Shown: piece by piece, positions 3,006 through 61,556 of the stretch | Layout of the letters: each line of letters starts with the position of its first letter | Position numbering within the stretch: the stretch's first letter is position 1 | Assembly: GCA_964016885.1 (NCBI GenBank) | Contig: OZ024746.1 | Span: 62,558,001 to 62,622,000, forward strand | Direction: 5' to 3' | Origin: Eledone cirrhosa | Lineage: Eukaryota | Length of the DNA: 64,000 nt | Notes under the pieces: generated by a model | Databases searched by the model: none | Seen by the model: the letters and a program-made list of their open reading frames with translations, nothing else | Told to the model about the DNA's origin: nothing | Translations under genes and position numbers: made by a program

Positions 3006-3461
3006 TTCAAGATTCTCTGGATGGGGAAGATTTGGGTATTTCAGTAGCAAATGAATAAATACATAAATAAATATTTATTTGTAGTATTTTTGGACAATTT
3101 ATTTTCCTTAGCATTGATTTTAATGATTCTGTAATTCAAAGGCTCAGTAAATTATGTCATAGAACATTTTTTTTTTTATGTGTGAGAAGGAAATTTGGAT
3201 GATAAATTGGTAAACAAGGGAAATACAGAAACAAAAACGGTTAAGAAACAGAATTAAACAATACAGATACATGAAAAGACACAGTGGCCATGGTTGGAAT
3301 GCTCTTGAACACGTGCTTCAATCAGAGTTAACATGGAGTTAAAAATAACAACATTTAAAGTAAAACATGCCAATCTCTACATAATTGGTTAATCTGCTGG
3401 AAATAGCAACTAAATGTCACTCTTCTATCTTAAATTTTTAATAAAAGCACATCAGATAATA

Positions 3462-3652
3462 ATTGTTTCTACTTTTGGCACAGGGCCAACAATTACTCCA
3501 GTGCATTACTGGTACTTTATTTTATCGACCCCATAAGGATGAAAGGCAAAGTTAACAGTGGGATTTGAACTCAGAACCCAAAGGCCCATAACTCTATGCT
3601 GCAAAGGCATGGTGTCTGACGCTCAACCCAATACTGCCAATCCACCACCTTT
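3462..3652 (-). mobile_element. tRNA-derived SINE family A
   Basis: On the minus strand: A-box-like TGGCAGTATTGG, B-box GAGTTCAAATCC, central GCCTTTCATCCTTAYGGGGTCGATAAAATAAAGTACCAG, tail GTGCCAAAAGTAGAAACAATTATT. Confidence 0.9.
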
Positions 3653-3925
3653 CAGATAATAATGCAGCTCGAGATGCCCATAAAATGACGGAATGATCAC
3701 AACTGATATGCTTTTCATCAAAGGTCTACTAAATCATGATAGACATAAAGCTAAGCAAATCTATAGCTGAAGTTACACTTAATTGGGTTTTTTTTAAACA
3801 ATATTTGTTTGTTTTTATTGCTGTTATTGATATTACTATTATTTAGCCCCAGGTCAGACCTGATTACACAGAATTAAGAACAAAAGTCTTCAAGGTCTGT
3901 CTGTCTGTCTGTGTCTCTGCGTGTG

Positions 3926-3961
<36 letters not shown>

Positions 3962-4049
3962 TGTGTGTAATACTGGGAGGATTCTTCTGCTGTATCAAAG
4001 GCATAACAACCTTCCTAGTGTAGGTGAACTAAATAACAACTGCTCCCAA

Positions 4050-4515
4050 TACACTGTATAATGTGGTTGGTGATAGAGAGGACATATCCAGCCATAGAAA
4101 ACCTGTCAAACAAAGAGTTGAGGAAACTCTTCAGTTGTGTCAAAGACATGACAACCTCCTTAGTGTTGGTGAAGGTTCCTCCAGGACAATCTGTAAAGTG
4201 GTCAGTGATATGAAGGTCATCTAGTTATAAAAAATGTCAAACAAAGAGTTGGAAGGACTCTTCAGTTGTGTCAAAGACATGGCAACCTCCCCAATGCTGG
4301 TGTAACAATAAAACCAACTTAGTAGAGTGTGGAAATGTACATAAGAAGATGTGGGTCCCCATCCTGTTTGAGCACTTGGTAGAGCACAGAAATGGAATTA
4401 AGCAAAATGCAGGTTTTTTTGGCTCCTTCATGGTGTCAGTAGCTCCACTTGAGTAGTGACTCTGTGAAGATTTATCTAACACTTGCTGGCAAGGAAAGCA
4501 GACGTTAAACAATAA
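4050..4515 (+). mobile_element. RTE-tailed non-autonomous element (same family as 1212-1668)
   Basis: Two TGTCAAACAAAGAGTTG...CAGTTGTGTCAAAGACATG units and tail CTTGCTGGCAAGGAAAGCAGACGTTAAAC. Confidence 0.55.
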
Positions 4516-4703
4516 TAATGAATATCCTAAATACATATCTTCAAACAATTTCCAGATGGTAGGATATGATTCAAGGGAAATCTGGCTGCTGTTTCTAACA
4601 GATCAAGAGATCTTGGGTGAAAAAAACTTGATATCTAGAAGGCAAAAGCTGTTCCGGTCAGGATTATCAAGTTTTTTTCATTTTTATTATTTCAACTATA
4701 ATA

Positions 4704-4895
4704 AGGGCAGCAGATCGGTAGAGAGTCAGACTCAATGCTTTGCAGCATAGAATTACTGCCCTTTATGATCTGAGTTCAAATCCCGCCAAGGTTAAATTTG
4801 CCTTTCATCATACAGGATCATACACCGGGGTCGATTTAATCGACTTTCCCCTCCCTCAAAAGTGCTGGCCTTGTGCCTATATAAGAAACCATTAT
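4704..4895 (+). mobile_element. SINE family A, long variant
   Basis: GGCAGCAGATCGGTAGAG...GAGTTCAAATCCCGCC...GCCTTTCATC...GTCGATTTAATCGAC...GGCCTTGTGCC. Confidence 0.85.
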
Positions 4896-6027
4896 TTCAA
4901 CTATAATGTATCTAAGAGTATATTATCCAAAGTGCCCTTCCTCTTGCAAAAAAGGGGGATGATCATTGTGCTGGTGCCACACACACATGCACACACACAC
5001 TCTCTCTCTCTCTCATACACACACTCTCCTTTACATCTACATACACTTAAAAAAAAAAAAAATTGTGCAATCACAGAGATTCCTCAGGGATCACAGTCAT
5101 ACATATGCACAAGCAGCCACACATACAAATACAGTCATACACATACGCAGTCGTACATACACACACTGTCACACACACACACACATACATACACACACCT
5201 GGGATTGATCAGGAGAGAAATCAATGGAGTAAATGAAATATTGCCAACAAGATTAGGAATTATTCTATTCCTGAAGTATTTGTTTTGTTTTCTTTTTCTT
5301 TTCTTCCTGGAAATGTTTCTCTCCTCCAATGAGAATCAGAGAAACTAGAATGGATGATTCATTTGTAAATTTTGGTCCACCGCAATTGTCATCATCACCA
5401 TCATCATCATCATCATCTTAGTCATCATTGTTGTCATTGTCTTGGTCATCACTGCAACCATCACCATCATCACTACTACTACTACTACAATTACAACCAC
5501 CACATCACCGCCACCACTGCCAACACCAACACCACTATCACCACCAACGCCACCACCACCATCACCACCACCAACACCACCACCACTATCATTATAGTCC
5601 CAAAACTAACTATATATGACAACAGATAAAAAAAAAGAGGCCTGACATAGCAAGCTGATATAGAATGTGTGTGTGTGTCAGTGTGTGAATATGTGTATGT
5701 GGATGTAAAGGAGAGTGTGTATGAGTGAATGTGTGTATGAGAGAGAGAGAGAGAGAGAGAGAGTGTGTGTGTGTGCGGCACCAGCACAATGAACAATATA
5801 CCAGAAAAATACACCTACAGGGGTCAATTAAATGGATTAAGTATACTCTTTAATTTGGTGCCCCTGTATCCACACAGTCTCATGACAAACTGGAAAAAGT
5901 AAAAGAATAGACATGCCACCAGTAAGTGACATAGTCCATGACTGGCACCTTGAAAAGATGGTACCCCTGTGAATAATATCTATTATCAAGGTGATGGAGG
6001 AATTATAGCTTACAAGATGTAACACAT

Positions 6028-6435: not shown

Positions 6436-7180
6436 TCATCATCGTTTAACATCCATCTTCCACGCTAGCATGGGTTAGACGGGAGTTGTCCCAATTTAAG
6501 GCAAGGCTGGTCGTGTAGAAAACTGCCAGATAGTCTTATATGAATAAGACTATCTGGCAGTTTTCTACGCCTGGATGCCCTTCCTAACACCAACCACATT
6601 TACAGTGTGGACTGGTAACTTTTTACCGTGTTACCTACACGGTCACATTACAGCATGGACTGTGTGTTTTTTTTTGTCGTGACACCTACACGATCTCGAT
6701 CTCATTTATTTGGACTGGATGTTGTGGTACCAACTTTACAGAGAGAGGGTGGTGTTGGTGGGAGTGGGAGGATGGAGTAGGGGTAGTGGATTGGGGTGTA
6801 TATTTGGTTAAGAGGTGCCTACTGACTGTAGGTTTCGCTTTGTACATAGGCAAGGCGGGTCTTCTGTATTACTGCGTGGCGCCAAAGATCTCGGTCCAGT
6901 GACATTGTCTTAGAGAAGTGCAAGCATGTAAGGTCGGAATTTATCAAATCGTTCCAGGTTTTTCTGGGTCTACCTACTCCGTAACTTCCATTAATTTTGA
7001 TCGCCCTGCACTTTTTTATACAGCTGTCGTCTTTCATACGCATCATGTGATCATACAAACGTAGTCTTCATACAAACAGCATCTGATCCCTCTTATTCTT
7101 AATTTCTCACTTATGTTTTGCCGTTCACGTATATTACTATTACACATCCAACGGAGCATGCATGCTTCGTTCCTTTCCAG
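6436..7180 (-). mobile_element. RTE-clade LINE, 5'-truncated 3' fragment
   Basis: Encodes ...HMMRMKDDSCIKKC...GRPRKTWNDLINSDL; highly similar to 20363-21116; (GAT)n tail. Confidence 0.9.
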
Positions 7181-7398
7181 TATAAAACTGCTCTATATTA
7201 TATTTTATCTGATGAAAGCACACCATAATTTAACTTGGTGTCCTTGAAATATGTATAATGAAATAAATATGGTTTTATAAATATAGTTTCCATTTGTTAA
7301 TATATCGTATTTTTACTCCAATAATTTGTTGAGTGCTTTATATCAGTTATAAAAATATTTGCTTGTTGTATCCCAACAATTTAAATAGAACTTCTACA
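7181..7398 (+). mobile_element. Penelope-like element 3' end (pseudo-LTR) carrying a hammerhead
   Basis: Homologous to 47216-47428; contains CTGATGA...GAAA core. Confidence 0.75.
7201..7265 (+). ncRNA. Minimal type-I hammerhead ribozyme
   Basis: Stem I TATTTTAT/ATGAAATA, core CTGATGA (7209-7215), stem II AAGcACACCA/TGGTGTcCTT, GAAA, short stem III, AUA triplet. Confidence 0.8.
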
Positions 7399-7916
7399 TA
7401 TATATACCTATATATATATTTGAAAAAAAGGAAAAGAATGACTTCACTTGTAGTGTTAAAAAAATTTTTTTTTAACACTACAAATGGAAGTCATTCTTTT
7501 CCTTTTTTTCAAATATACCTAACTGTACCAAGGATCTCACACATTTTCCAATATATATACACACACACACGTAGAGCAAATATTTATTAACTTTAATCTG
7601 TACTAATAATATATCAAGAGTAAAAAGTGAGTCGTGTCTGTTCATCAAAGGGTCGTCAGACAAGAACGGATAAATATATAAATATATATTTATAGATAAA
7701 TAGATAAAGATATTACAACAAAACCAAAAGTTGCCATGCTGGCAAAAAGAAAATAAAGGAGACTGTGTTTTTGTGTAAGAGTCTGTGTGTGTGTATATAC
7801 ATATGTATACATATGTATACATATGTCTACACACACACACAGTTACATTGACAGGTGGGTAAAAAAAAAAGGTGTGAATAAATAGATTGGAATAACAGTA
7901 AGAGTCTTACAGAGAT

Positions 7917-19010: not shown

Positions 19011-19115
19011 TTTTTAACATACATACACACCATATTCTACTTTGATTGAATCTTAACCATCTACTTTGATTGAATCTTAACCATCTACCATGTCAGGGTA
19101 TGTCATGTCTCATTT

Positions 19116-19182
19116 TGTTTCATCTGATGAGGACGTACTGTTGAACTTAACTCAGTACCTCTAAAACATGTATAATAAAATA
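19116..19182 (+). ncRNA. Degenerate hammerhead ribozyme (GAAA to AAAA) in a Penelope-like end
   Basis: TGTTTCAT-CTGATGA-GGAcGTACTG...CAGTACcTCT-AAAA-CATGTATA-ATAAAATA; element bounded by (TA)n. Confidence 0.65.
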
Positions 19183-19320
19183 TAATTGATCACAAGAATA
19201 TCAATATTGTTAATATTTTGAATTAATATTAATAACCCTGGAAAACATTTAACTATTGAGTGCTTCCAATCTATTGTAAAACTCATTCTTTGATGTATTC
19301 ATTGAACCTTGTTTAACTCT

Positions 19321-19375
<55 letters not shown>

Positions 19376-19997
19376 GCATAAACACATACACAGAGAGGCA
19401 GAAAGAGTGAGAGAGAGCCCTGAATTCCAGACAAGGTCACAGACTCAGATTACAAACAACCTAATTCTAACCCATCAGTTAAGTAGAGCAGATGAAATTT
19501 TCTAGGGCAAAGAAATGTTTGTTGCTAAGGAGTATCAGCCAAATGAAAAGAACCCACCACATACCTACTATGAAACACCAAAATAAATAATTCTATTTAT
19601 AATAATAATAATGGGTTCTAAATTAGGCACCATTCAGCAATTTTGAAAAGGGATGGAAGAGGGGAAGGTTAGTTGAATGGACTAGCAGTTTATTTTATCA
19701 GACCACACCCCCACTTCAGAAGGATAAAAGGTAAAGTTGACCTTGAAGAGATTTGAACTGAAGAGAATATAAAGAGCCAGAATAAACATACCAAAACATT
19801 TTATTAGGCAGTAACGATGCCCTAATAATGGTTTCTAATTTAGACACTAGGCCAGTAAGTTTGTTGGGGAAGAAAGTTGACTAAATGAAGACAGTATATG
19901 ACTGGTACTTTATTTTATTGACCCGGAAAAGATGAAAGGCAAAGATAACCTTGGGTGGAATTTGAACTCAGAACATAAAGAACTGAAACAAATATTG

Positions 19998-20210
19998 CTG
20001 TGGAAGAAGACGCAGTAGAGGAAGGCCACAAAAAACATGGGCGGGGGTAGTGAGAGCTGACCTCAGATCACTGAAGCTCACAGAGGAGATGACAAGGGAC
20101 CGTGATGAATGGAGAGATGTTGTGCTGAAGAAGACCTGTCCCAACCTTGCAAGCAAGCAGGGAAAAGCAGATGTAAAATGATGATGGTGATGGTGATGAT
20201 GACAATGATG
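19998..20210 (+). mobile_element. RTE LINE extreme 3' end inserted in a SINE-A copy
   Basis: Encodes RRSRGRPQKTWAGVVRADLRSLKLTEEMTRDRDEWRDVV; tail CTTGCAAGC..AGGGAAAAGCAGATGTAAAATGATGATG. Confidence 0.8.
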
Positions 20211-20362
20211 ATTATTTGTCCAACACTCAACCAACTCTGCAATCCAATGCCTTAATAATTTCTTTATAAGCCAGAGGGGGTGAATAGAAGAAGTCCAATA
20301 TATTTTCCCATGTAGTGTATTTAGTTACATTATTAAGTCTGATATATCAGCTTGACAGTGTT

Positions 20363-21116
20363 CATCATCATCATCATCATCGTTTAACGTCCATCTTCCA
20401 CGCTTGCATGGGTTTGGACGGGAGTTTTCCCACTTGAGGCAAGAGTGGTTGTCTTGCTCACATAGGACTGTCTGGCGGGTTTTCTACGGCTGGATGCCCT
20501 TCCTAACACCAACCAAGTTTACAGTGTGGACTGGGAGGTTTTTACCGTGTTACCTACACGGCCACATTACAGCGTGGACTGTGTTTTTTTGTCGTGACAC
20601 CTACACGACCTCATTTGTTTCGGGCTGGATGTTGTGGTACCAACATTACTTTACATTGAAAGGGGTGGTGTGGATGGGGTGGGGGTAGTGGGACGGGGGT
20701 GTATTTTTGTTAGAGGTGCCTACTGACTGTAGTAGGCTTCACTTTGTACTTAGGTAAGGCGGGTCTTCTGTATTACTGTGTAGCGCCAAAGATCTCAGTC
20801 CAGTGACATTGTCTCGGAGAGGTGTAAGTGTGTGAGGTCGGAATTTATCAAGTCGTCCCAGGTTTTTCTGGGTCTGCCTACTCTGTGGCTACCGTCTATT
20901 TTTATTGCCCTGCACTTTTTTATACAGCTGTCGTCTTTCATGCGCATCACGTGACCGTACCAACGTAGTCTTCTCTCGAGTAAACAACATCTGATCCCTC
21001 TTATTTCTAATTTTTCCCTTAGTTCGTTTATGCTTTGCCGTTCACGTATATTACTATTACACATCCAGCGGAGCATGCAAGCTTCGTTCCTCTCCAGTCT
21101 GCGTATATCCTCTGTT
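20363..21116 (-). mobile_element. RTE-clade LINE 3' fragment
   Basis: ORF 20795-21076: MLRWMC...RRLRWYGHVMRM...GRPRKTWDDLINSDL. Confidence 0.92.
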
Positions 21117-21365
21117 ATAAGGAGTAATTATGAGAGGAAGAAGGCTGCAGTCCTACTGCAGTATCACCAATTCAGTAATATACAAAGAAAAGAAAACCGT
21201 AATCAGAAACAAAAACAAAACAGAAAGAAACAGTTCTTGATTCAATATAGAATTCCAATTTGTGAATCTAATAATTTAGTTCTCAGGGAAATAGTGAACT
21301 CATTATATCAATGTAGTATTTCTACTCCTGAATTTAGAAAAAAAAAACAATGAACTGATTATATA

Positions 21366-21501
21366 CTGTATATGGCGGAGGTGGGGGTCAGCTTATATTT
21401 GGGGTCAATATTTTGACTTTGGATTTTTGCCCATTTCTCAGACATAAAAATGGTGGGGTGGGGTAGGGTGGGGGCGGGGGCTTATATCCGAGTATACATG
21501 G
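21366..21501. mobile_element. Tc1/mariner (Tc2-like) MITE
   Basis: TA-CTGTATAT ... GGCTTATATCCGAGTATACATGG-TA. Confidence 0.5.
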
Positions 21502-22594
21502 TAAATGTAATATTTCAGCCCCTGAATCTAGATAGAAATAATTGTTTCTACTTTTGGCACACGGCCAGCAATTACGCCAGTGCATTACTGGTACTTTATT
21601 TTATCGACCCTGTAAGTTAACCTCGGCTGGATTTGAACTCAGAACGTAAATCTAAATAATGAACTGATAATCTAAATGTAGTTATTTCTAGCCCTGAATC
21701 TAGAAATTTCCACACACAAATTACAGCTGCTTTACAACTGCCCTTGTTTTTCAGCTTTTTAAAAAAAAAATCTTCTGCTTCTTTTGTTTTTCCCACTCTT
21801 TTTATTTTATCTCTGTCTCTCCTGGTTTTATTTCTGAACTGTAAGGCATACTAGATATCTACCCTAGTTTTTCATGGCTTACTAGCTCCATACGGACGCT
21901 TAAATTGGATTAAATAAATAATATAGTTAACCATATTAAAGTTATATGATTAGGATTACAAGAAGGAGGATGTTATTGTACGAGTGATTTTCTTTCCTTT
22001 GTGACGCAGGAAGCCAACAAGTCTTCCATTTTCATGTTTAGCAAACTACCTTTAAGTATGTATCTGTGTATACACATGTGTGTGTGTGTGTGCGTGTGCG
22101 CATGTGTGTGATTGTATATATATATGTGTGTGTGTCTGTGTATGTGCGAGTGCATGTATGCGAATCATATATACATTTAAATATATATTATATATTTAAA
22201 ATAGACTGGGAGATGAAAAGATGTTAAGATTGAAAGAATAAGTTTTTACTATCAATACACAACACATTAAAGACACTTTGATGATGTAAGATTAGTGTAA
22301 GAGAGGATGTATTTGATAAAACAATTCAAAAGATATTTGTTTTGGTTTTGTTTTTTTGTTCTGCCTTTCCTTTAAATATTTATATTATCAACTGAAAGCT
22401 CTGTGGTAGTTAGAGGAGGATAAAAGATGTTAGAATTAAGGAAAAATCTAACCTTTATGGAATAGTAACCAAAACAGAAATCTACTTCCAAGTAGAAAAT
22501 AAATAATTTTAGGTTTATCAACCTTAAATAAATGGAATAATTTTTTTATTTAATGAAATTATCCTGGAAATAATGTAAAACATATTTTCAAGAT

Positions 22595-23312
22595 AATAAT
22601 TGTTTCTACATTTGGCACAAGGCCAGCAATTACCCAGTGCATTACTGGTACTTTATTTTATCGACCCCGTAAGGATGAAAGGCAAAGTTAACAAAGATAA
22701 TAATATTGGTTTCCAGTAATTTTGGGGCAGGGGAAAGTCGATTAAATCGACCCCAGAGCGTGACTGGTACTTTATTTTATTGACCGTGTAAGGATGAAAA
22801 GTAAAGTTAACCTCGGCGGGATTTGAACTCAGATCATAAAGGGCCGTAACTCTATGCTAAAAAGCATGGCGTCCGATCCTCTACTCCGACACTGCTAATA
22901 CACCACCTGTCTAATGATTTCTAGTATAGGGAAATGGCCAGATATTTGGGGAGAGGGGAAAGTCGATTAAATCGACTGCATTACGTTACTGGTGCTTTAT
23001 TTTATCGACCCCGTAAGGATGAAAGGCAAAGTTAACTTTGGTGTGGGATTTGAACTCAGAATGTTAGGGATGTAACTCTATGCCGCAAAGCATGCTGTCC
23101 AAATACTGCCAAATACCACCCTAATACTAATATGTTTCTACTTTTGGCACAAGGCCAGCAATTACTCCAGTGTGTTACTAGTACTATATTTTATCGACCC
23201 CCGTAAGGATGAAAGGCAAAGTTAACCTCAGTGGGATTTGAACTCAGAACGTAAAGGGCCTTAACTATGCTGCAAAGCATGGTGCCTGATGCTCTACTGA
23301 TCCTGCCAAACC
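22595..23312 (-). mobile_element. Head-to-tail cluster of ~4 SINE-A copies
   Basis: Four ..ATTTTATYGACC..GTAAGGATGAAA cores separated by (TAA)n linkers. Confidence 0.9.
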
Positions 23313-23630
23313 AATAATAATAACAATGTAAATCTTTACATCTGCTGCAATATAGACAGAAACTCTCATGATCTATAAAATTTGTTTGAAAAAAAAAAAT
23401 AAAATAAAAACCACACACCAATTGACCATATAAGTTATAGTATTCCACTACCAATTGAGTGGTTGATTGTTGTTGTTAGTGGTGGTGGTGGTAGCAGTGG
23501 TGTTGGTGAATATAAGGGAAGTAATATTTCGATTTTTTATTTTGTTTCGTTTATTTTATGGTTAGTTCTGTTTGTTATTTTTTAATACCGATTTATATAT
23601 ATATAAAAAATATATATATATATAAAAAAA

Positions 23631-23662
<32 letters not shown>

Positions 23663-24027
23663 AAATATATATATATATATATATTTTTTTTTTTTACTTA
23701 GTTCAACTCTCTCTCTGTTACTTTTTTCTTTTTGCTGAGAACATTAGTAATCAATATTAAAAGATATGCCAATATAAGTTCAACATTCCATAGACAATAT
23801 AGCAATATAAAGAGTCATTGCAGTAAATACTAAGCAATACTTGCAGATCAAAAGTTTGAAGAGGAAGGAGAGGAAGGAGAGGTGAAATATTGAACATCTC
23901 CTGCTTTCTAATGTTGTTTAAATTGCTAACCCTCATATACAAATGTGTGTGTGTGTGTGTGTGTGTGTATTAAAAAAATGTGTTTCTTCCTTTTCTTAGC
24001 CTCATCTATCCTCCAATTCCTCATTCT

Positions 24028-24114
24028 ATCTTCTAATGAAGGACTAACGTCTGAAACATTAAGACTTTTTCCCTACTATACCAAGTGTTAAACTAATATA
24101 TATTATCATTGTAC
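24028..24114 (+). mobile_element. Penelope-like 3' end with degenerate hammerhead-like motif
   Basis: ATCTT-CTAATGA-A-GGAC(TAAC)GTCT-GAAA-CATT-AAGAC followed by CCTACTATACCAAGTGTTAAACTAATATA shared with the 10312 copy. Confidence 0.6.
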
Positions 24115-25417
24115 AGGGGCCTACATCTACTGAGTGCACAAGAGAGGTTGTCATGTCTTTAACACAACTGTAGAGTCCTCCCAAACCATTGTTTGGCAAG
24201 CTTTCTCTAGCTGGGTGCTCTTATTGTATAGATCAACAACACTAGAGAGGTTGTCACACTGTGACACAAGTGAAAGGTTGCTATAAATAGCTTAGAAAAT
24301 CAGGTAAAGCCCCCTTATAGATGGGAAAAAAGTGGCCACAGCTATCTGTCTATAAAGGGTTTCTACCTGAGTTTTTGTTATTTATAGCAGCTATCTATAT
24401 TTACAGTTATTTTTCTACATCTGAGTTGCCCTACTCTCTCTCTCTCTGTGAGTGAGTTATCACATACATCTTCATATTGGCGTATATTGAAAGCAGTCTT
24501 GCTTATGACCCACTCAAACGATAATACATCCTGCATCATTATAGTTCAACAATGAGCAAAACATATTCTTTCTTCTTCCACAATAACACCTTGTGGAGTT
24601 ATATGGGTGTCATAGTGACATACAGAGTGTCTTAGATATTTAAAACCTGGTAGAGCCAATCCCTCTCCAGATCTGAACACAGCCGAGTTCATCCTGAGAA
24701 GTGATAAAGAGGATGTGAGATAGAGATATAAGGAAGAATCAACTCCGGGATATAGACTATCATAAACAATAAATCAATTATCAATTACAGAGCGTAATCA
24801 TTTTAAAAGCAATTTCTGCGATCAATATTTTAAAAGTTGAATACCATGACAGGTTGCAAAATTGTTAAAATAACAACATTAGCAAAACAATAGAATTAAA
24901 AACACTGATGAAAACAAAAATAAACTTTGAAAAGTCCTAACACAAACACCACCTTCAACATTGATATTATATAAATATAGTGTTTACATAAAATATGTGT
25001 TCCTGTATTTCCAACTTATAGATCATAGGCTTCATGTCTATAGCTATTATTTTCACTCTACCTATCAAATGAAGAAAAAAAATGGTTGGGGCATTTAAAA
25101 AAAAATATCTATTGATGCTTCAATGTAAAGAATGAAGGACCACTAACTGTAAAAAAAAAAAAAAATTAAGAACAAACTACAATGAATCTGTCTTATTTAT
25201 TCTTTGTAGTTTTGGCTATCAATCTTTTAAGATAGGCAACAGTTATCAGAGCAGTTACACACACACAAATAATCTATAAACCAAACAAAAGTCGTAATCA
25301 GACTGATTAACAAGGAATCACTGACAAACTTCAACCTTTAGTCCACTGACATGCTGTCTTCAGCACCAGTCTTTGCTACGACTACTACAACATCCTCTGC
25401 TCCTCAAATATAAATTA

Positions 25418-25582
25418 CCGTATTTCCCAGTGTCGAAGACACTACTTTTTTCCTAAAATAAGTCTAAAAAATCTACCATGCGTCCTTGAGGCCGAAGGTT
25501 GTTTAATATTTTTTTTATTTTTGGTTGTCAAAATTAGGGTGCGTGCTCGAGGATGAAGTGTCTTTGGTGCCTGGAAATACGG
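25418..25582. mobile_element. Tc1/mariner Tc2-type MITE
   Basis: TA-CCGTATTTCC ... GGAAATACGG-TA. Confidence 0.8.
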
Positions 25583-26147
25583 TAGTTGCATTACCTCCTT
25601 TACGAAAGCCCACCAGATACATATGACACACACAACATTTCAACCATACTGTGTCACCAGCCAACCAGCCAACACACCACTGCTACCACTACCACCACCA
25701 CCCTGACCATTATCCCAAATTCTCAACGTCAGTCCCTCCCTACAGACACTGACTCACAAGATGTTGAAGCTGAACATATCAACCATATCAATCTGACCAG
25801 TCTCAAAGAGCCTGTCTATAAAATGTTGGACACAGAACCCCATCTACCTACCTCATACTTAGTGACTAAACCAGAAATAAAGATATGAAAGGCTTCAATT
25901 AGCAGCTACAAACACACACAGACAACAATCATGACACACACAAACCAAACACAACACAGACAATATCACCACACACTGCAATCAATAGCTGATCAACAAA
26001 CTGTATCCCCCTCTACCTTCTAATGATATTACACCAATTCCTACTTCCCAACTTCACTTAATCCACCCACCTAACCATATCTTGTCATCTGTACTGTCTC
26101 AGTCCCCCCCACACACACACACACACACCATGTCCTCTCCTTTCATA

Positions 26148-26352
26148 TTAACCCTTCTAATCCCAACTGCCTGAAACCACCCATCTTTCTATAATAGAAA
26201 ACAATTGCGTTTATATTTATCTAAAAACTTTCATAATTTTGTTGAAACCTTTTAGTCTAAACAATGGATAAATAATGAGAAATATATTTTATTAAATCAT
26301 GCACGGTTACGAATATATTTTATTAAATCATGCGCGGTTACGAAAAGAAATT
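26148..26352. mobile_element. piggyBac-type MITE family 2 (degenerate)
   Basis: TTAACCCTTCTAATCCCAACTG...CGGTTACGAAAAG; internal 32-bp tandem duplication. Confidence 0.5.
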
Positions 26353-26384
26353 CTAAATAAGCCTACAAGGTAAAAATTAAAAAC

Positions 26385-26458
26385 GGTCATCGCAGGCCAC
26401 TCTGACTGGTTTAGCGGGCCACAATCTGGCCCGCAGGCCACCTATTGCATGCCTCTGG
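26385..26458. mobile_element. hAT-Charlie right-end fragment
   Basis: GCGGGCCACAATCTGGCCCGCAGGCC subterminal palindrome then TTGCATGCCTCTG. Confidence 0.55.
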
Positions 26459-27149
26459 TATAAAGCATAATAATTCAATTGTAAAATCACACACAAAGTA
26501 ATATACACACTGACACATGAACCAACATTGTTACTCAATCTGCTAGAAATAACAAGCAAATCTATCTTAAATCACACTTCTGTTTTTTGTGTGGGGAAAA
26601 AAAAAAAAAAAGGACACAATGACATCCTTGATAAACAAAAAGACAGGAGGATCACAGATACTTTTGGGTCCTTTCAAGAACAGCCTCCCTCCACTTATGG
26701 TGTTCCTACATAATCTCTGTGGGGTTCTGTGTTTTGAGATCAGCTCTCACCCCTTCTAATGCAGCTTCCTTCTACTGGCACCTCCTGCCACTTCTTCACA
26801 CCAAGTAACCATCATCAGCATACAAGTCAATACCAGTGGTGTTCTGTTGCACACTTGAGAAGACCCCCTTCGGTTATAAATGACCATACGATTTGCACCT
26901 AGAAAGTTTCCCTCCGAGGCACAAGTCCGGGCAAGGTTGTTTGTGGAAAACCAGCAGTCGCCCATGCATACTGGCCCCCTCTCTGGCACACTACATCTGA
27001 TTGCTCTAATACCCACTTTTTCCTCTCAATTCCTTCACACACCATCATTCATGCACACTAACAATACAATGTTTATAGTATTATTACTTCTGGACAGGTC
27101 TTTGCGAAAAAATTTGCAGTAAACTAAAGTTAAGTCGTCTGTAAACATT

Positions 27150-27343
27150 AATTGTTTCTACTTTTAGCACAAGGCCAGCAATTACCCAGTGTATTACTGG
27201 TGGTACTTTATTTTATCGACCCCATAAGGATGAAAGGCAAAGTTAACCTCAGAGGGATTTGAACTCAGAATGGCAAGAGCCATAACTCTATGCTTCAAAG
27301 CATGGTGTCCGACCCTCTACCGATACTGCCAATCCACCGCCCT
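27150..27343 (-). mobile_element. SINE family A, full-length short variant
   Basis: Head AGGGCGGTGGATTGGCAGTATCGGTAGAG to tail AGTAGAAACAATT. Confidence 0.9.
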
Positions 27344-42249: not shown

Positions 42250-42891
42250 ATTACTTTACCTTCATTAGGACAAAAGGCAAAGCTAACATCAGCAAGATCT
42301 GAACATAAAGGTCCAGAACTGTATGCTGTAAAGTATGTTGTCCGATGTTCTACTGACACTATCAATCCACCATTATAATAATTGTTTCTACTTTTGGCAC
42401 AAGGCCAGCAATTATCTCAGTGAATTAATTACTGGGAATTTATTTTATCAACCCCGTAAGGATGAAAGGCAAAGTTAACCTCGGCAGGATTTGAACTCAG
42501 ACCATAAAGGGCCGTAACTCTATGCTGCATAGCATGGCCTCCGACCCTCTATCCATACTGCCAATAATAATAATGGTCTCTGATATAGGCACAAAGCCAA
42601 CAATTTTGGGAGAGGGGAAAGTCAATTAAATCAATTCCAACCCCACCAGTGTATTACTGGTACTTTATTTTATCAACCCTGTAAAGATGAAAGGCAAACC
42701 TAACCTTGGCAGGATTTGAACTCAGAATGTAAAGGTCTGTAACTATATGCCACAAAGCATGTTGTTCGATGCTCTACCAATACTGCCAATCCACCATTGA
42801 CTTTGCCTTTCATCCTTACGGGGTCGATAAAATAAAGTACCAGTAATACACTGGGTATTTGCTGGCCTTGTGCCTAAAGTAGAAACAATTA
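42250..42891. mobile_element. SINE-A cluster: 3 copies minus, one headless copy plus (42797-42891)
   Basis: Family cores in both orientations. Confidence 0.88.
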
Positions 42892-46917: not shown

Positions 46918-46987
<70 letters not shown>

Positions 46988-47024
46988 ATTAAATAAATGG
47001 AAACTATATTTATAAAACCATATT

Positions 47025-47089
47025 TATTTCATTATACATATTTCAGGGATACCAAATTAAAATATGGTATGCCTTCATCAGATAAAATA
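47025..47089 (-). ncRNA. Minimal type-I hammerhead ribozyme (mirror copy)
   Basis: Reverse complement of 47236-47300. Confidence 0.8.
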
Positions 47090-47235
47090 CAATATATAAA
47101 CAGTTTTATAAATAATTTTGACGTACCCTATTAGATGCAACCATTATTTTTGGAAGCTATCCAGACAGCTTCCAAAAATAATGGTTGCATCTAATAGGGT
47201 ACGTCAAAATTATTTATAAAACTGTTTATATATTG

Positions 47236-47300
47236 TATTTTATCTGATGAAGGCATACCATATTTTAATTTGGTATCCCTGAAATATGTATAATGAAATA
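47236..47300 (+). ncRNA. Minimal type-I hammerhead ribozyme
   Basis: TATTTTAT-CTGATGA-AGGcATACCA(10 nt)TGGTATcCCT-GAAA-TATGTA-TA-ATGAAATA. Confidence 0.82.
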
Positions 47301-47425
47301 AATATGGTTTTATAAATATAGTTTCCATTTATTTAATATCGTATATCTACTCCAAAAACTTGTCGAGTGCTTTATATCAGTTATAAAATATTTACTTGTA
47401 TCCCAACAATTTTAAATAGAACTTT

Positions 47426-47467
<42 letters not shown>

Positions 47468-50914: not shown

Positions 50915-51454
50915 AAAAATGTTCAGAAATATTAACAATGGTTTCTGATTTAGACACAAAGTCAACAATTTGTGGTGCGGTGAGGAAACACAATTAAATC
51001 AAACCCAGTGCATTACTGGTACTTTATTTTAAGGACACTGTAAGGATGAAAGACAAAGCTAACCTCGGTGTGATTGGAACTCAAAACACAGAAAGTTGTA
51101 ACTAAACACTGCAAAGTATTTTGTCTGACCACCTGTGGAGGGACATGGCCTAGTGGTTAGTGTGTTGGACATGTGATCATAATGCTGTGGGTTTAATTCC
51201 TAGAGTGGTGTGTTGTGTTCTTGAACAAAACACTATATTTCATGTTGCTTCACTACACTCAGTTGAAAATGAATACCAACAATAGCTGAGAATTAACTCT
51301 GCGATTGACTAGCATTCTGTCCAGTGTGAAGTGCTGTACTCTCAGTCACTTAATGCTATGGAAACTGAGATGAGCACTGAACAGATGAAATGCCAAGCTT
51401 AGGATAAACAAACTTTTTCAAACTACTGATTCTGCCAATGTATCACTCAAATAT

Positions 51455-51932
51455 AATTGTTTCACAAGGCCAGCAATTTTGGGAGAGGAGAAAGTCGATT
51501 AAAATCGACCCCAGTGCGTGACTGGTACTTTATTTTATCGACCTCATAAGGATGAAAGGCAAAGTTAACCTTGGCGGGATTTGAATTCAGATCATAAAGG
51601 GCCGTAATTCTATGCTGCAAAGCATGGCGTCCAACTCTCTACCGATACTGCCAATCCATTGCCCTTCAAATATAATTGTTTCTACTTTTGGCACAAGGCC
51701 AGCAATTATCCCAGTGCATTACTGGTACTTTATTTTATCGACCCCGTAAGGATGAAAGGCAAAGTTAACCTCGGCGGGATTTGAACTCAGAATGGCAAGG
51801 GCCGTAACTCTATGCTTGGCGTCCGACCCTCTACCGATACTGCCAATCCACTATAATTGTTTCTACTATAGGCACAAGGCCAGCAATTACCCAGTGCATT
51901 ACTGGTACTTTATTTTATCGACCCCGTAAGGA
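51455..51932 (-). mobile_element. Tandem SINE-A cluster (long, short, partial)
   Basis: Three family cores; an older A copy and a B-head SINE precede it at 50938-51430. Confidence 0.9.
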
Positions 51933-52431
51933 TATGATTGCTATTTAGGCATAAAGTCAACACAACCACTCAATGGTACCACCCTTCTCACAACACCCTC
52001 ACTATAGTACCACCCTTCTCACAACACCCTACTACAGTACCACCCTTCTCCTGACATGACACAATGAACACAACCTTCTCACAGCAAGGTACAATGACAC
52101 CATTTCTCAAAAGGCATGTTACACCTATTTGAACTCCTCAGTTAACTTGTTTATCAGCTTAAACTGAAACCACTCTACTTCAATCACACATTACATCCAG
52201 TATTTATTGAAAACAAAATTCATCACCACTCTCTCTCTCTCTCTATCACACACACCCTTCTCTTACCCCCTTCTCACACACACACCAAAGGAGGAATGAC
52301 ACTAAGCTACAATTTACATATCAAAACAAATACAGTGTTGTGTGGTATAAGCAAGTTATTAAACTGTCTGCTCAATAGAGCAAAACAGTGAGAAAATGAG
52401 AGAGGTGTAGGGATTCTGCTAAACTAAATTA

Positions 52432-53990: not shown

Positions 53991-54877
53991 AAAACCCATA
54001 CAAATACCTTTTTATATTTACTTTACTAAATAATCACATTCCTAAAATAGTCAAAAGGCCACATATTAGAAGTGGAGAGGTACACTTGATTATATTTGCA
54101 CCAGTGGTTGACTAATGTAATATTTCATCAGCTTTCACCCACTCTTTGTAGAAGAGTAACAGTTATAGTTGAGACTGGCAGGGTTTGAACTCAGAATACA
54201 AAAAGGTTTGGGAAAATACCCTCAACCAAAATGATTAAGAATAAACAAAACGTCAAGAAAAAGAGAGAAACTATAAAAATTCAGTCCAAGTCAGTTTTTT
54301 CTAATTTCTGTGTTAATTATATTTAGAACAAACTATTGTATAATGTATCCAAGATACACTATGTCAAAATATAAAATAAAAAGACATGATGGTCATGGCC
54401 AGAATATTTTTGACCATAGGTTTGCTCTATCAAGGTTGCTTTTAACCTGCTAAAAATACCAGCCAAATAACCCACTATGGCTTTTTAAAAAACAAGGAAG
54501 TACACATTGGATATTGTAGCTCTAGATACATTTTAACTTTAAAAATGTCAAAGGCTGCCTCAAGCCATCAGGCTCACCATGCTGATACTTATAAACAGTT
54601 ACATTTTCATTAGTGTTAAGTGACTCCCTCTTGGACAGGATGCTAGTGCAACCCAGGGTTAATCTCAAGCTGCTGCTGCTGGTACTCATAGAATGAAGTG
54701 TTTTGCTCAAGAACACATGCTCCTGGTCCAGGAATTAAACCCACAACATTATGATTGCAAGTCTAAAACCATAACCACTTGGCCATGCACCTTCACATTT
54801 TAACAGAAAAAAAAGATAAGACTGCCATTGTTGGAATGCTTGTTTTATCAGGACTGAGTTAGGGCTAATCAATATCA

Positions 54878-56525
54878 ACAAAATAAGTAAACCCTGAAGA
54901 TATATAGTCCTGTGGTTAGTGTTGGGCTCACATTCATGGGTTAGGGTTAAAATAAGTAAACCCCAAAGATACATAGTCCTATAGTTAGTGTTGGGTTCAC
55001 ATTCATGGGTTAGGGCTAAAATAAGTAAACCCCGAAGATATATAGTCCTGTGGTTAGTGTTGGGTTCACATTCATGGGTTAGGGCTAAAATAAGTAAACC
55101 CCAAAGATACATAGTCCTATAGTTAGTGTTGGGTTCACATTCATGGGTTAGGGCTAAAATAAGTAAACCCCGAAGATATATAGTCCTGTGGTTAGTGTTG
55201 GGCTCACATTCATGGGTTAGGGCTAAAATAAGTAAACCCCGAAGATATATAGTCCTGTGGTTAGTGTTGGGCTCACATTCATGGGTTAGGGCTAAAATAA
55301 GTAAACCCCGAAGATATATAGTCCTGTGGTTAGTGTTGGGCTCACATTCATGGGTTAGGGCTAAAATAAGTAAACCCCGAAGATATATAGTCCTGTGGTT
55401 AGTGTTGGGCTCACATTCATGGGTTAGGGCTAAAATAAGTAAACCCCGAAGATATATAGTCCTGTGGTTAGTGTTGGGCTCACATTCATGGGTTAGGGCT
55501 AAAATAAGTAAACGCCGAAGATATATAGTCCTGTGGTTAGTGTTGGGCTCACATTCATGGGTTAGGGCTAAAATAAGTAAACCCCGAAGATATATAGTCC
55601 TGTGGTTAGTGTTGGGCTCACATTCATGGGTTAGGGCTAAAATAAATAAACCCCGGAGATATATAGTCCTATGGTTAGTGTTGGGCTCACATTCATGGGT
55701 TAGGGCTAAAATAAGTAAACCCCGAAGATATATAGTCCTGTGGTTAGTGTTGGGCTCACATTCATGGGTTAGGGCTAAAATAAGTAAACCCCGAAGATAT
55801 ATAGTCCTGTGGTTAGTGTTGGGCTCACATTCATGGGTTAGGGCTAAAATAAGTAAACCCCGAAGATATATAGTCCTGTGGTTAGTGTTGGGCTCACATT
55901 CATGGGTTAGGGCTAAAATAAGTAAACCCCGAAGATATATAGTCCTGTGGTTAGTGTTGGGCTCACATTCATGGGTTAGGGCTAAAATAAGTAAACCCCG
56001 AAGATATATAGTCCTGTGGTTAGTGTTGGGCTCACATTCATGGGTTAGGGCTAAAATAAGTAAACGCCGAAGATATATAGTCCTGTGGTTAGTGTTGGGC
56101 TCACATTCATGGGTTAGGGCTAAAATAAGTAAACCCCGAAGATATATAGTCCTGTGGTTAGTGTTGGGCTCACATTCATGGGTTAGGGCTAAAATAAATA
56201 AACCCCGGAGATATATAGTCCTATGGTTAGTGTTGGGCTCACATTCATGGGTTAGGGCTAAAATAAGTAAACCCCGAAGATATATAGTCCTGTGGTTAGT
56301 GTTGGGCTCACATTCATGGGTTAGGGCTAAAATAAGTAAACCCCGAAGATATATAGTCCTGTGGTTAGTGTTGGGCTCACATTCATGGGTTAGGGCTAAA
56401 ATAAGTAAACCCCGAAGATATATAGTCCTGTGGTTAGTGTTGGGCTCACATTCATGGGTTAGGGCTAAAATAAATAAACCCCGGAGATATATAGTCCTAT
56501 GGTTAGTGTTGGGCTCACATTCATG
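54878..56525. repeat. 69-bp tandem satellite, ~24 copies
   Basis: Unit TTGGGCTCACATTCATGGGTTAGGGCTAAAATAAGTAAACCCCGAAGATATATAGTCCTGTGGTTAGTG; the 466-aa ORF is a repeat artefact. Confidence 0.98.
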
Positions 56526-57575
56526 AGATTTGGTTTTCTATTTGGAGACTGGGAGACACATTGTGTCCTTGAGCAAGGCAGTTCATTTTCCATTGTCACA
56601 TCGTTCTAGTTTACACAATTGAAAATAAGTACCAGCAGTAGCAGCAGCAGTTGGTTTCACTTGACAGACTGACGTCCCATCTAAAGAGAAATCTTGTAAT
56701 GAATATATATGTATGAACCTGTAATACCTGATAAGAGTTGTAGGGGCGTCATTGTGACATATGGGCATTTTGAAACTTGGTGGAACCTATCCTTCTCCAA
56801 GTCGATTTCTTTCGGAGAAAGAGAAAGAGAAAGTTTGAACAAGATATGGAAGAAGAATCAATCCCAGTACTAGATTGGTACTTTTTCTAATCAACCTTGA
56901 AAGGCATTGTACTATCTACCAGTCACTTAATACCCCATGGAATCAGGATAAGCTCCAGCTTTTGTCCAAACCATGACCCCCCCCCCCCCCCCAAAAAAAA
57001 ACCAAGATTAAACCTGATTGGCGTATGTGTTGGACTTCTGTCAGTTCCGACAAATGTTCCTGAACAGCCTGCTCACAAAATTAACGTGCAAGTGACTAAG
57101 CATTTCACAGAAATGCGTACCCTTAACAGTTTTCAAAGAGATTTAGCATGGTGCAGTAAATAGCAAAGGTTGGTCCTTTCAATTACAGGTAAAACTCAAT
57201 GTTCTCAGCTGAATGTACTGGAGCAATGTGAAATAAAGTATCTTGCTTAAAAACACCATACACCCCTGGGAATTAAACTTATGACTTGACATTTGTCAAC
57301 CAAACACCCTAACCATTAAGTCACATGCCGTCACAGAAACCTAGTTGTTAGCATACAAACATTACACATTATTAACAGGAACAAGAACACAAAGTCTAAG
57401 TGAGTTACAATGGAGAAGAGAAAATTAGTAACAACATTGATTTCTTAAGCATCACCTGTCCTTCACCTTCATGTTGGGTTTGTGGGGCAGGATAATTATT
57501 GTTTCCATAGATTTTTCTTTGTGTTTAGTTCTTTTTTGATACCCTCTCCCATCCCAGAAGCAGCTGAGGAATTTA

Positions 57576-60349: not shown

Positions 60350-61350
60350 CAAAAGTTAACCTTGGTGGAATTTGAACGCAAATGGTAAAGAGCCAGAGAA
60401 ATACTTGTGCACATCTGTCCAATGCTTTAACAATTCTGCCTATCCACCACCCTAATAAAAATAATTGTTTCTACTTTTGGCACAAGGGCCAAATTACTCA
60501 GTGCATTACTGGTACTTTATTTTATCAACCCCGTAAGGATGAAAGGCAAAGTTAACCTCAGCGGGATTTGAACTGAGAATGGCAAGGGCCGTAACTCTAT
60601 GCATCAAAGCATGGCGTCCGACCCTTTACCGATACTGCCAATCCACCAAATAATAATGGTCTCTTATTTAAACACAAGATCAGCAATTTTGGGGGAAAGG
60701 GGAAAGTCGATTAAGTCGACCCCAGTTCGTTACTGGTATTTTATTTTATCGACCCTGTAGAGATGAAAGGCAAAGCTAACCATGACGGGATTTGAACTCA
60801 GAACGTAAAGGGCTATAACTTTATGCCAATAATAATAGTTGTTTCTACTTTTGGCACAAGGCCAAGAATTACCCCAGTGCATTACTGGTGCTTATTTTAT
60901 CAAACCCCGTAAGGATGAAAGGCAAAGTTAACTTCGGTGTGATTTAAACTCAGAACGTAAAGGGCCGTAACTATGCTGCAAAGCATGGCGTCCGACCCTC
61001 TTCTGATACTGCTAATGATAATTGTTTCTACTTTTTGGCACAAGGCCAGCAATTACCCCAGTGCATTACTGGTACTTTATTTTATTGACCCCGTAAGGAT
61101 GAAAGGCAAAGTTAACCTCGGCGGGATTTGATACTGCTAATGATAATGGTTTCTTATATAGGCACAAGGCCAGCAATTTTGGGGTAGGAGAAAGTTGATT
61201 AAATCGACCCCAGTGCGTGACTGGTACTTTATTTTATGGACCCCGTAAGGATGAAAGGCAAAGTTAACTTCAGCAGGATTTGAACTCGGAACGTAAAGGG
61301 GTATAACTCTATGGTGCAAAGCATGGCATCCGACCCTCTTCCAATACAGC

Positions 61351-61381
<31 letters not shown>

Positions 61382-61556
61382 TGTTTCTACTTTAGGCACA
61401 AGGCCAGCAATTACCCAGTGCATTACTGCTACTTTATTTTATGGACCCCGTAAGGATAAAAGGCAAAGTCAACCTCGGCGGGATTTGAACTCAGATCGTA
61501 AAGGGACGTAACTATGCTGGAAAGCATGGCGTCCGACCCTCTACCGATACTGCCAT
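60350..61556 (-). mobile_element. Head-to-tail array of ~7 SINE-A copies
   Basis: Repeated family cores, long and short variants, (TAA)n linkers. Confidence 0.92.

Follow-up and report, generated by a model that had tools for sequence, protein, structure and literature searches.

Four truncated pseudo-LTR (pLTR) pieces of Penelope-like retrotransposons are present in the window, that is, the whole 64,000-nucleotide stretch of Eledone cirrhosa DNA analysed here, and each of them carries a type I hammerhead fold as read from its sequence. The covariation of the stems across lineages of these elements and the retention of an unpaired cytosine in stem II likely reflect selection, and very high confidence attaches both to the identity of the element and motif and to the selection on structure. 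The motif is a variant of an already known class and is defined by an unpaired C at position 10.4 rather than by a C/C mismatch as such.

Hammerhead copies in the window and their host element

The elements of the first copy (copy 1), which was read as a type I hammerhead fold, and the other related pieces in the window are as follows:

7181..7418, plus strand: 5'-truncated 3' end (pLTR piece) of a Penelope-like element of subfamily A, with a (TA)n tract at its end
7201..7208, plus strand: 5' strand of putative helix I, pairing over 8 bp with 7258-7265 (these 8 bp are formed in 18 of 18 subfamilies)
7209..7215, plus strand: putative catalytic box C3-A9; inner-branch changes at position 7 only
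7216..7245, plus strand: putative stem II, with 3 bp, the C7219/C7242 mismatch, 6 bp and a 10-nt loop
7246..7257, plus strand: GAAA box, palindromic helix III (7249-7256) and AUA triplet
7258..7265, plus strand: putative helix I, 3' strand
7415..7517, minus strand: inverted duplicate of the element's terminal piece (94% over 104 nt)
19053..19339, plus strand: pLTR piece of lineage C (94% to L064), with a decayed hammerhead at 19124-19174
46976..47161, minus strand: inverted 5' copy of the same insertion as 47164..47450 (arms 98% complementary)
47164..47450, plus strand: pLTR piece of subfamily B (94% to the L034 pLTR), with an intact-core hammerhead at 47244-47292

A sequence-only reading of this DNA had described three copies of stem II, each composed of 3 bp, a C/C mismatch and 6 bp, with compensatory changes between copies 1 and 2. 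All three stem II sequences were recovered, starting at 7216 (copy 1), 19131 (copy 3) and 47251 (copy 2), and all three have this architecture (folds of -7.9, -7.6 and -8.4 kcal/mol), while two base pairs are exchanged on both sides between copies 1 and 2, namely 10.2-11.2 (A-U versus G-C) and 10.6-11.6 (C-G versus U-A). The hammerhead architecture proposed in that reading stands, but the membership of the copies in a retrotransposon and the palindromic nature of helix III had been missed, and a fourth copy at 47081-47033 on the minus strand, the identical inverted twin of the hammerhead at 47244, had not been mentioned. Helix I of copy 1 is interrupted by a bulge at A7200, beyond which outward pairing resumes. 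In the copy at 19124, the catalytic G12 reads A and there are further mismatches, and it is therefore regarded as decayed, a point that the sequence-only reading had also overlooked. The piece at 7181..7418 matches a copy in L036 at 93% over 239 nt and the pLTR of the ORF-bearing element L034 at 87%.

A structural pattern derived from the family had three matches in the window and none in 100 shuffles; since the pattern was built from these same copies, these matches show non-randomness only. Folding was modestly better than that of shuffled sequences for copy 1 (z = -2.05) and copy 2 (z = -2.40), with a z of 0.03 for the 19124 copy; the reverse strand of copy 1 reached -2.03, and thus the strand is not fixed by folding energy alone. 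At E values up to 10, Rfam placed no hammerhead in positions 7150-7330 (181 bases around copy 1), and none was among the 150 matches listed of the 171 over the window. A search for the element's ORF found none left in the window, where the copies are truncated ends. Two unrelated repeats were also noted: a tandem array at 54742-56628, with a 69-nt unit and ~95% identity between units, and a 99-nt SINE-like core with 20 copies, often clustered (3473, 19866-27262, 42396-42719, 50980-51964 and 60473-61488).

The layout of the host element was read from L034, which has an inverted motif at 2836 and sense motifs at 3186 and 7277, with ORF pieces at 3416-5631 between them and a motif-to-motif unit of 4,091 nt. 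L033 and L034 both display the EN+ Penelope-like layout, in which an ORF with RT plus, at its C terminus, a GIY-YIG-type nuclease lies between pLTRs, with inverted 5' copies. The RT and GIY-YIG motifs were recognized in the sequence of the ORF pieces; a Pfam search of four of these pieces matched neither RT nor GIY-YIG, and one homologue gave an RVT_1 match below threshold. The element runs into a TA tract and ends ~140 nt beyond the predicted cut site, (TA)n being the insertion target. The host elements thereby appear to bear hallmarks of the Hydra clade, which is marked by a CxCX5C linker and (TA)n targeting (Craig et al. 2021, PMC8557442, accessible parts): they share with it the (TA)n targets, the linker (present in L034 and L243) and a short near-palindromic helix III. 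However, their unit is 4.1 kb long versus under ~3 kb in that clade (PMC8557442). L034 reads DKS and RWR, and the sister lineage L035 DKT, where the Hydra-clade motifs are DKT and RWK. Protein homologues were found in Hydra vulgaris and Argonauta, among others. Related ORF pieces lie next to each of lineages A/B, C, D and E; the ORFs of the sister lineages L035, L039 and L427 showed no firm tie to a hammerhead.

Several other features of these elements were observed. A motif pair able to form a hairpin, common to lineages A-D, lies ~60-75 nt downstream of the cut site (e.g., 7315-7338 of the window). GGTAYGT, which resembles a 5' splice site, is common in 12-13 of the 18 subfamilies at 27-48 nt upstream of the core (e.g., L034:3140-3146); it is absent from lineage D, and no conserved 3' splice site was found. 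The idea that the hammerhead resides in an intron was unsupported, the contigs of three runs being free of any splice-like joint. A cluster of about ten T-to-C changes, resembling A-to-I hyper-editing of antisense RNA, was seen in one contig (run X4 record 17, from a run of uncertain kind) over the inverted-repeat arm at L034:3115-3169; genomic copies showed neither such a cluster nor an editing-like strand bias.

Purifying selection on the fold in propagating lineages

The fold is under purifying selection in propagating lineages. The catalogue of 352 copies from 288 sequences was reduced to 295 insertion events, and two with a stem II shorter than 18 nt were left out. These loci were not a random sample: 46 were chosen because C10.4 was missing, 44 regions because it was present, and 35 because of a lineage C start. 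Among the 170 events outside these selected loci, pairs 1-3 and 5-7 were paired in 147-164 events, and position 4 was paired in 4 and C/C in 152. Flank-based clustering yielded 18 subfamilies of at least three members (217 events), in whose majority sequences stem II was canonically paired at positions 1-3 and 5-7 in 108 of 108 cases. Private changes, with 12 distant events left out, broke pairs 53 times and kept them 41 times.

An alignment of 84 subfamily representatives and the 3 window copies comprised 78 distinct rows, in which 92.1% of cells were paired (98% in helix I, 96% in stem II and 96% in helix III) and position 4 was paired in 9%; the RNAalifold consensus left this position open. 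The covariation score was 0.334, compared with 0.223 for shuffled alignments and at most 0.177 for slid controls, and 0 of 500 shuffles reached it; two count-type covariation measures did not beat the shuffles (219 and 442 of 500). A flank tree of 343 copies, built with FastTree, is short, and a comparable tree was poorly resolved, so that the counts of inherited changes are approximate: 35 of 38 inherited pair changes ended paired, 16 of them both-sided, and the core underwent no inherited changes except at N7 (7 changes). Free variation at N7 alone is what hammerhead chemistry predicts. The type I core (C3-A9, G12-A14 and A15.1-U16.1) is otherwise conserved, with three helices and an open helix I; helix III as a monomer consists of 3 bp plus 2 nt only. 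Since inherited changes keep the fold and the core and single-copy decay does not, it can be argued that the fold matters for amplification. Selection on RNA structure, which the sequence-only reading had proposed with covariation in a larger alignment as its test, is thus supported by the subfamily pairs, by the score exceeding all 500 shuffles and the slid controls, and by the changes on the flank tree.

The unpaired cytosine at position 10.4

Position 4 of stem II is unpaired in 18 of 18 subfamilies (C/C in 13, C/U in 4 and C/A in 1). The conserved mismatch at pair 4 was therefore described correctly in the earlier reading, but not its strict C/C character, as the fixed part is the unpaired 5' C, with C, U or A as its partner; similarly, stem II is indeed long, but its outer part is not fixed at 6 bp and runs from 4 to ~12 bp. 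G was found opposite 10.4 in 470 of 86,447 3'-side matches (0.54%), close to the rate of C-to-G decay in single copies (4.3 per 1,000), and among the bases of decaying copies C mutates most. On the flank tree, C10.4 underwent one small inherited change versus 32 tip-level changes, the latter inflated by the loci chosen as non-C, and the neighbouring 5' positions underwent 3-6 inner-branch changes; A10.7 is about as conserved (1 inherited change). None of the four inherited changes at position 4 makes a pair. Small groups with U at 10.4 exist, one of which adjoins an ORF (L285), and no base was found to covary with C10.4.

The same C is present in distant lineages. In lineage E, which was retrieved by a search that ignored position 4, 61 of 65 copies carry C/C and 62 of 65 carry C at 10.4 (two further matches without a readable core were left out); helix I there is GC-rich and 5 bp long, and the third pair is U-A. 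Lineage D and E proteins are 42-56% identical to that of L034, and lineages A/B, D and E group together as a single clade (SH-aLRT 92) in a protein tree of 35 rows from this genome and metagenomes only, with 22 of 77 metagenome loci used; about six deep lineages were sampled. The unpaired-C architecture occurs in 0 of 48 hammerhead motifs, some of them likely due to chance, from 42 of the 77 related metagenome loci, and the structural pattern had no matches in the metagenome contigs. Two other accounts of stem II were rejected: CpG-decay loss of a G-C closing pair in copy 3, for which there were 2 genome matches and whose lineage mostly has G-U there, and a register with an extra base after A9, which breaks pair 2 in lineage C, RNAalifold having chosen the original register.

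The unpaired C itself is probably under selection. The motif departs from the canonical type I form with a 4-bp helix II and conserved loop 2 bases, loop II being variable in length and sequence and helix II having no fixed 4 bp. C10.4 can tentatively be viewed, in the sense of the tertiary contact suggested in the earlier reading, as a docking point in stem II that replaces the absent loop 2 contact to helix I, because the mismatch sits where the canonical 4-bp stem II yields to loop 2. Between lineages, however, helix I switches from 8 AU-rich to 5 GC-rich pairs and the break moves from pair 9 to pair 6 with the C kept, and this remodelling without change at C10.4 fits a fixed contact poorly. 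Alternatively, C10.4, the A10.7-U11.7 pair and the purine at 10.5 could together be the surface by which the element's RT-endonuclease or a host protein recognizes the RNA, and would mark its 3' region for copying without any role in catalysis. The fixation of C10.4 and A10.7 despite free variation of loop II, of the length of the outer stem and of helix I is consistent with this, as are the position of the motif ~140 nt from the element's 3' end and the association of the pattern with one protein clade, but related elements amplify without the mismatch, both in the 48 motifs and in the published Hydra-clade list, and we regard this role as rather doubtful. If instead any non-pair at position 4 served to prevent an over-stable or misfolded long stem II, the identity of the C would be incidental. 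The variable partner, the U/U and U/C of small groups, the absence of inherited changes that create a pair and the scarcity of G opposite would then be expected; such tuning of stability is nevertheless unlikely, as the 5' base is C in all 18 subfamilies and in 62 of 65 copies of lineage E, although C mutates fastest, and related elements have perfect stems of 6-8 bp.

Inheritance of an unselected mismatch from one founder element is quite improbable. The mismatch-bearing lineages do form a single clade with few deep branches sampled, and a transversion is needed to turn C/C into a pair, but the neighbouring 5' positions changed on inner branches several times over, the C/A subfamily is one CpG transition away from a U-A pair and yet its majority keeps C, and the proteins have meanwhile diverged to the identities given above. 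Covariation arising from DNA hairpin repair or template switching, rather than from selection on RNA, has in its favor the frequent fold-back inversions in these elements; it is very improbable, since such repair would erase the mismatch too, the wobble pairs point to the sense strand (among majority pairs, 7 G-U in stem II and 14 in helix I versus 0 A-C), and the core varies only at N7. A-C was seen at pair 1 in 21 events.

Predicted dimer-type cleavage and relation to known hammerheads

We consider selection on a hammerhead fold in Penelope masters, with dimer cleavage and a docking C, to be a probable explanation as a whole. Covariation of the stems would result from selection, in active master elements, for a ribozyme whose predicted activity is dimeric cleavage after AUA. 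A more-than-unit transcript would pair two motifs via the 8-nt helix III palindrome, and cleavage would give unit-length RNA, possibly circularised; the element's protein would then copy the released RNA, starting ~140 nt downstream of the cut site. Dimer cleavage and a unit-length, perhaps circular RNA are suggested by analogy with known systems, and the least certain step is the replacement of the absent loop 2 contact to helix I, for which the freed C at the level of loop 2 may account. Helix III covaries between lineages and is palindromic in three sequence forms (self-duplex of -2.2 to -10.5 kcal/mol), and its maintenance in three forms supports dimer-type folding. The AUA triplet, an NUH cleavage triplet also recognized in the sequence-only reading, is found in 18 of 18 subfamilies and in lineage E, and cleavage of copy 1 is predicted after 7257; a cut two bases earlier, after GUA, was rejected, as it would leave helix I unpaired. 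Genomic 5' ends did not accumulate where the cut is predicted (of 121 rows, some of them duplicates, 2 lay within 3 nt), which is evidence neither for nor against cleavage, because copying of a circular template would run past the site. Poor cleavage in vitro has been published for Penelope-element hammerheads (PMC4209133, accessible parts). The unpaired C might, more speculatively, be a new hammerhead activator (RNA docking point or protein-binding site) that enables dimer-type Penelope hammerheads in cells without loop-loop contacts and helped the clade to pass 100,000 copies; as an activator, it would offer a direct handle on this poor cleavage.

Two short 5'-half patterns gave ~106,000 matches in the 3.0-Gb genome, counted as pattern matches uncurated as copies: the first with C at 10.4 had 91,571 (control 122) and that of a second lineage 14,597 more (control 46), while the first pattern without C at 10.4 had 6,318 (control 744). 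An 18-base motif across the cut site had 18,838 matches versus 1 in the control. These ~106,000 matches in 3.0 Gb approach the count of 126,247 given for axolotl retrozymes (accessible parts of PMC7229834), and they are over ten times the 9,000 given for Xenopus (PMC4209133, likewise). A family of this size escapes Rfam hammerhead detection. Its natural series of C/C, C/U and C/A, its three palindromes and its two helix I types offer a ready-made set for cleavage assays. An unpaired-C10.4 form may be included in a survey of Penelope hammerhead variants, reportedly by Lunse et al. 2017.

The remaining comparisons draw on the accessible parts of the cited papers. Hammerheads in Penelope and Hydra-clade elements have already been reported, as have covariation, a long helix II, a palindromic helix III and AUA sites, the last also in viroids (PMC4209133, PMC8557442, PMC1636495), and thus the AUA site and the long stem II, whose length the earlier reading had called unusual, both have precedents. 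Literature searches, mostly outside subscription papers, and the parts consulted of these sources and of PMC6765202 and PMC8967140 yielded no description of an unpaired-C10.4 variant. Like Hydra-clade hammerheads (PMC8557442), the motif is of type I, lies near the 3' end and has a loose first stem II pair; in contrast, none of the Hydra-clade rows seen in File S2 has a mismatch after three stem II pairs. A different octopus motif, Hydra-1_Obim, is listed there (PMC8557442, File S2), whose stem II pairs without interruption over 7 bp, whose helix III has 4 bp and whose site is GUU, where AUA is found here. With the minimal PLE hammerheads (Cervera and de la Pena 2014, PMC4209133) the family shares the pLTR location, thousands of dispersed truncated copies, a long helix II, a palindromic helix III and covariation among families. 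It differs from them in lacking, in this register, the extra base that separates A9 from 10.1, in a helix I of 8 bp that extends further in lineages A-D, and in the conservation of the mismatch across lineages: the same source contains single rows with a mismatch at the fourth stem II pair (C/A in a sea urchin, U/U in Clonorchis) and one Drosophila willistoni row with AUA (PMC4209133). Pair 1 is A-U in 12, G-U in 4 and G-C in 2 of the 18 subfamilies, and thus departs from the G10.1-C11.1 rule of the minimal PLE form.

An AUA triplet also occurs in ELVd + and sCYDV-RPV +, the latter with a long helix II containing internal loops (PMC1636495), but these are infectious plant RNAs with a stable helix III and measured activity, whereas the present motifs are genomic, have a palindromic helix III and were read as hammerheads from DNA. 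Non-LTR retrozymes likewise have type I hammerheads, reach very high copy numbers and can need dimers (PMC7229834); unlike these non-coding tandem repeats of ~300 bp, the motifs here are dispersed and flank a coding ORF. One paper, in the part seen, allows that hammerheads may simply parasitize Penelope-like elements, and the retention of the fold in inherited changes bears on the role of the hammerhead in them.

Other hammerhead types are present in the genome as well. A divergent motif type at L431:7128(+) and L045:1513(-), which also has 3 bp, C/C and pairing beyond, maybe belongs to a sister protein lineage. Families without the position-4 mismatch, at L012:2284(+), L181:4631(-), L265:528(+), L068:2840(+), L075:120(+), L252:4937(+), L284:1350(-) and L049:900(-), include short stems with a U/U base, canonical-like forms, and forms with a very long stem II with large internal loops. 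Rfam RF00163 was above its cut-off at 18 places.
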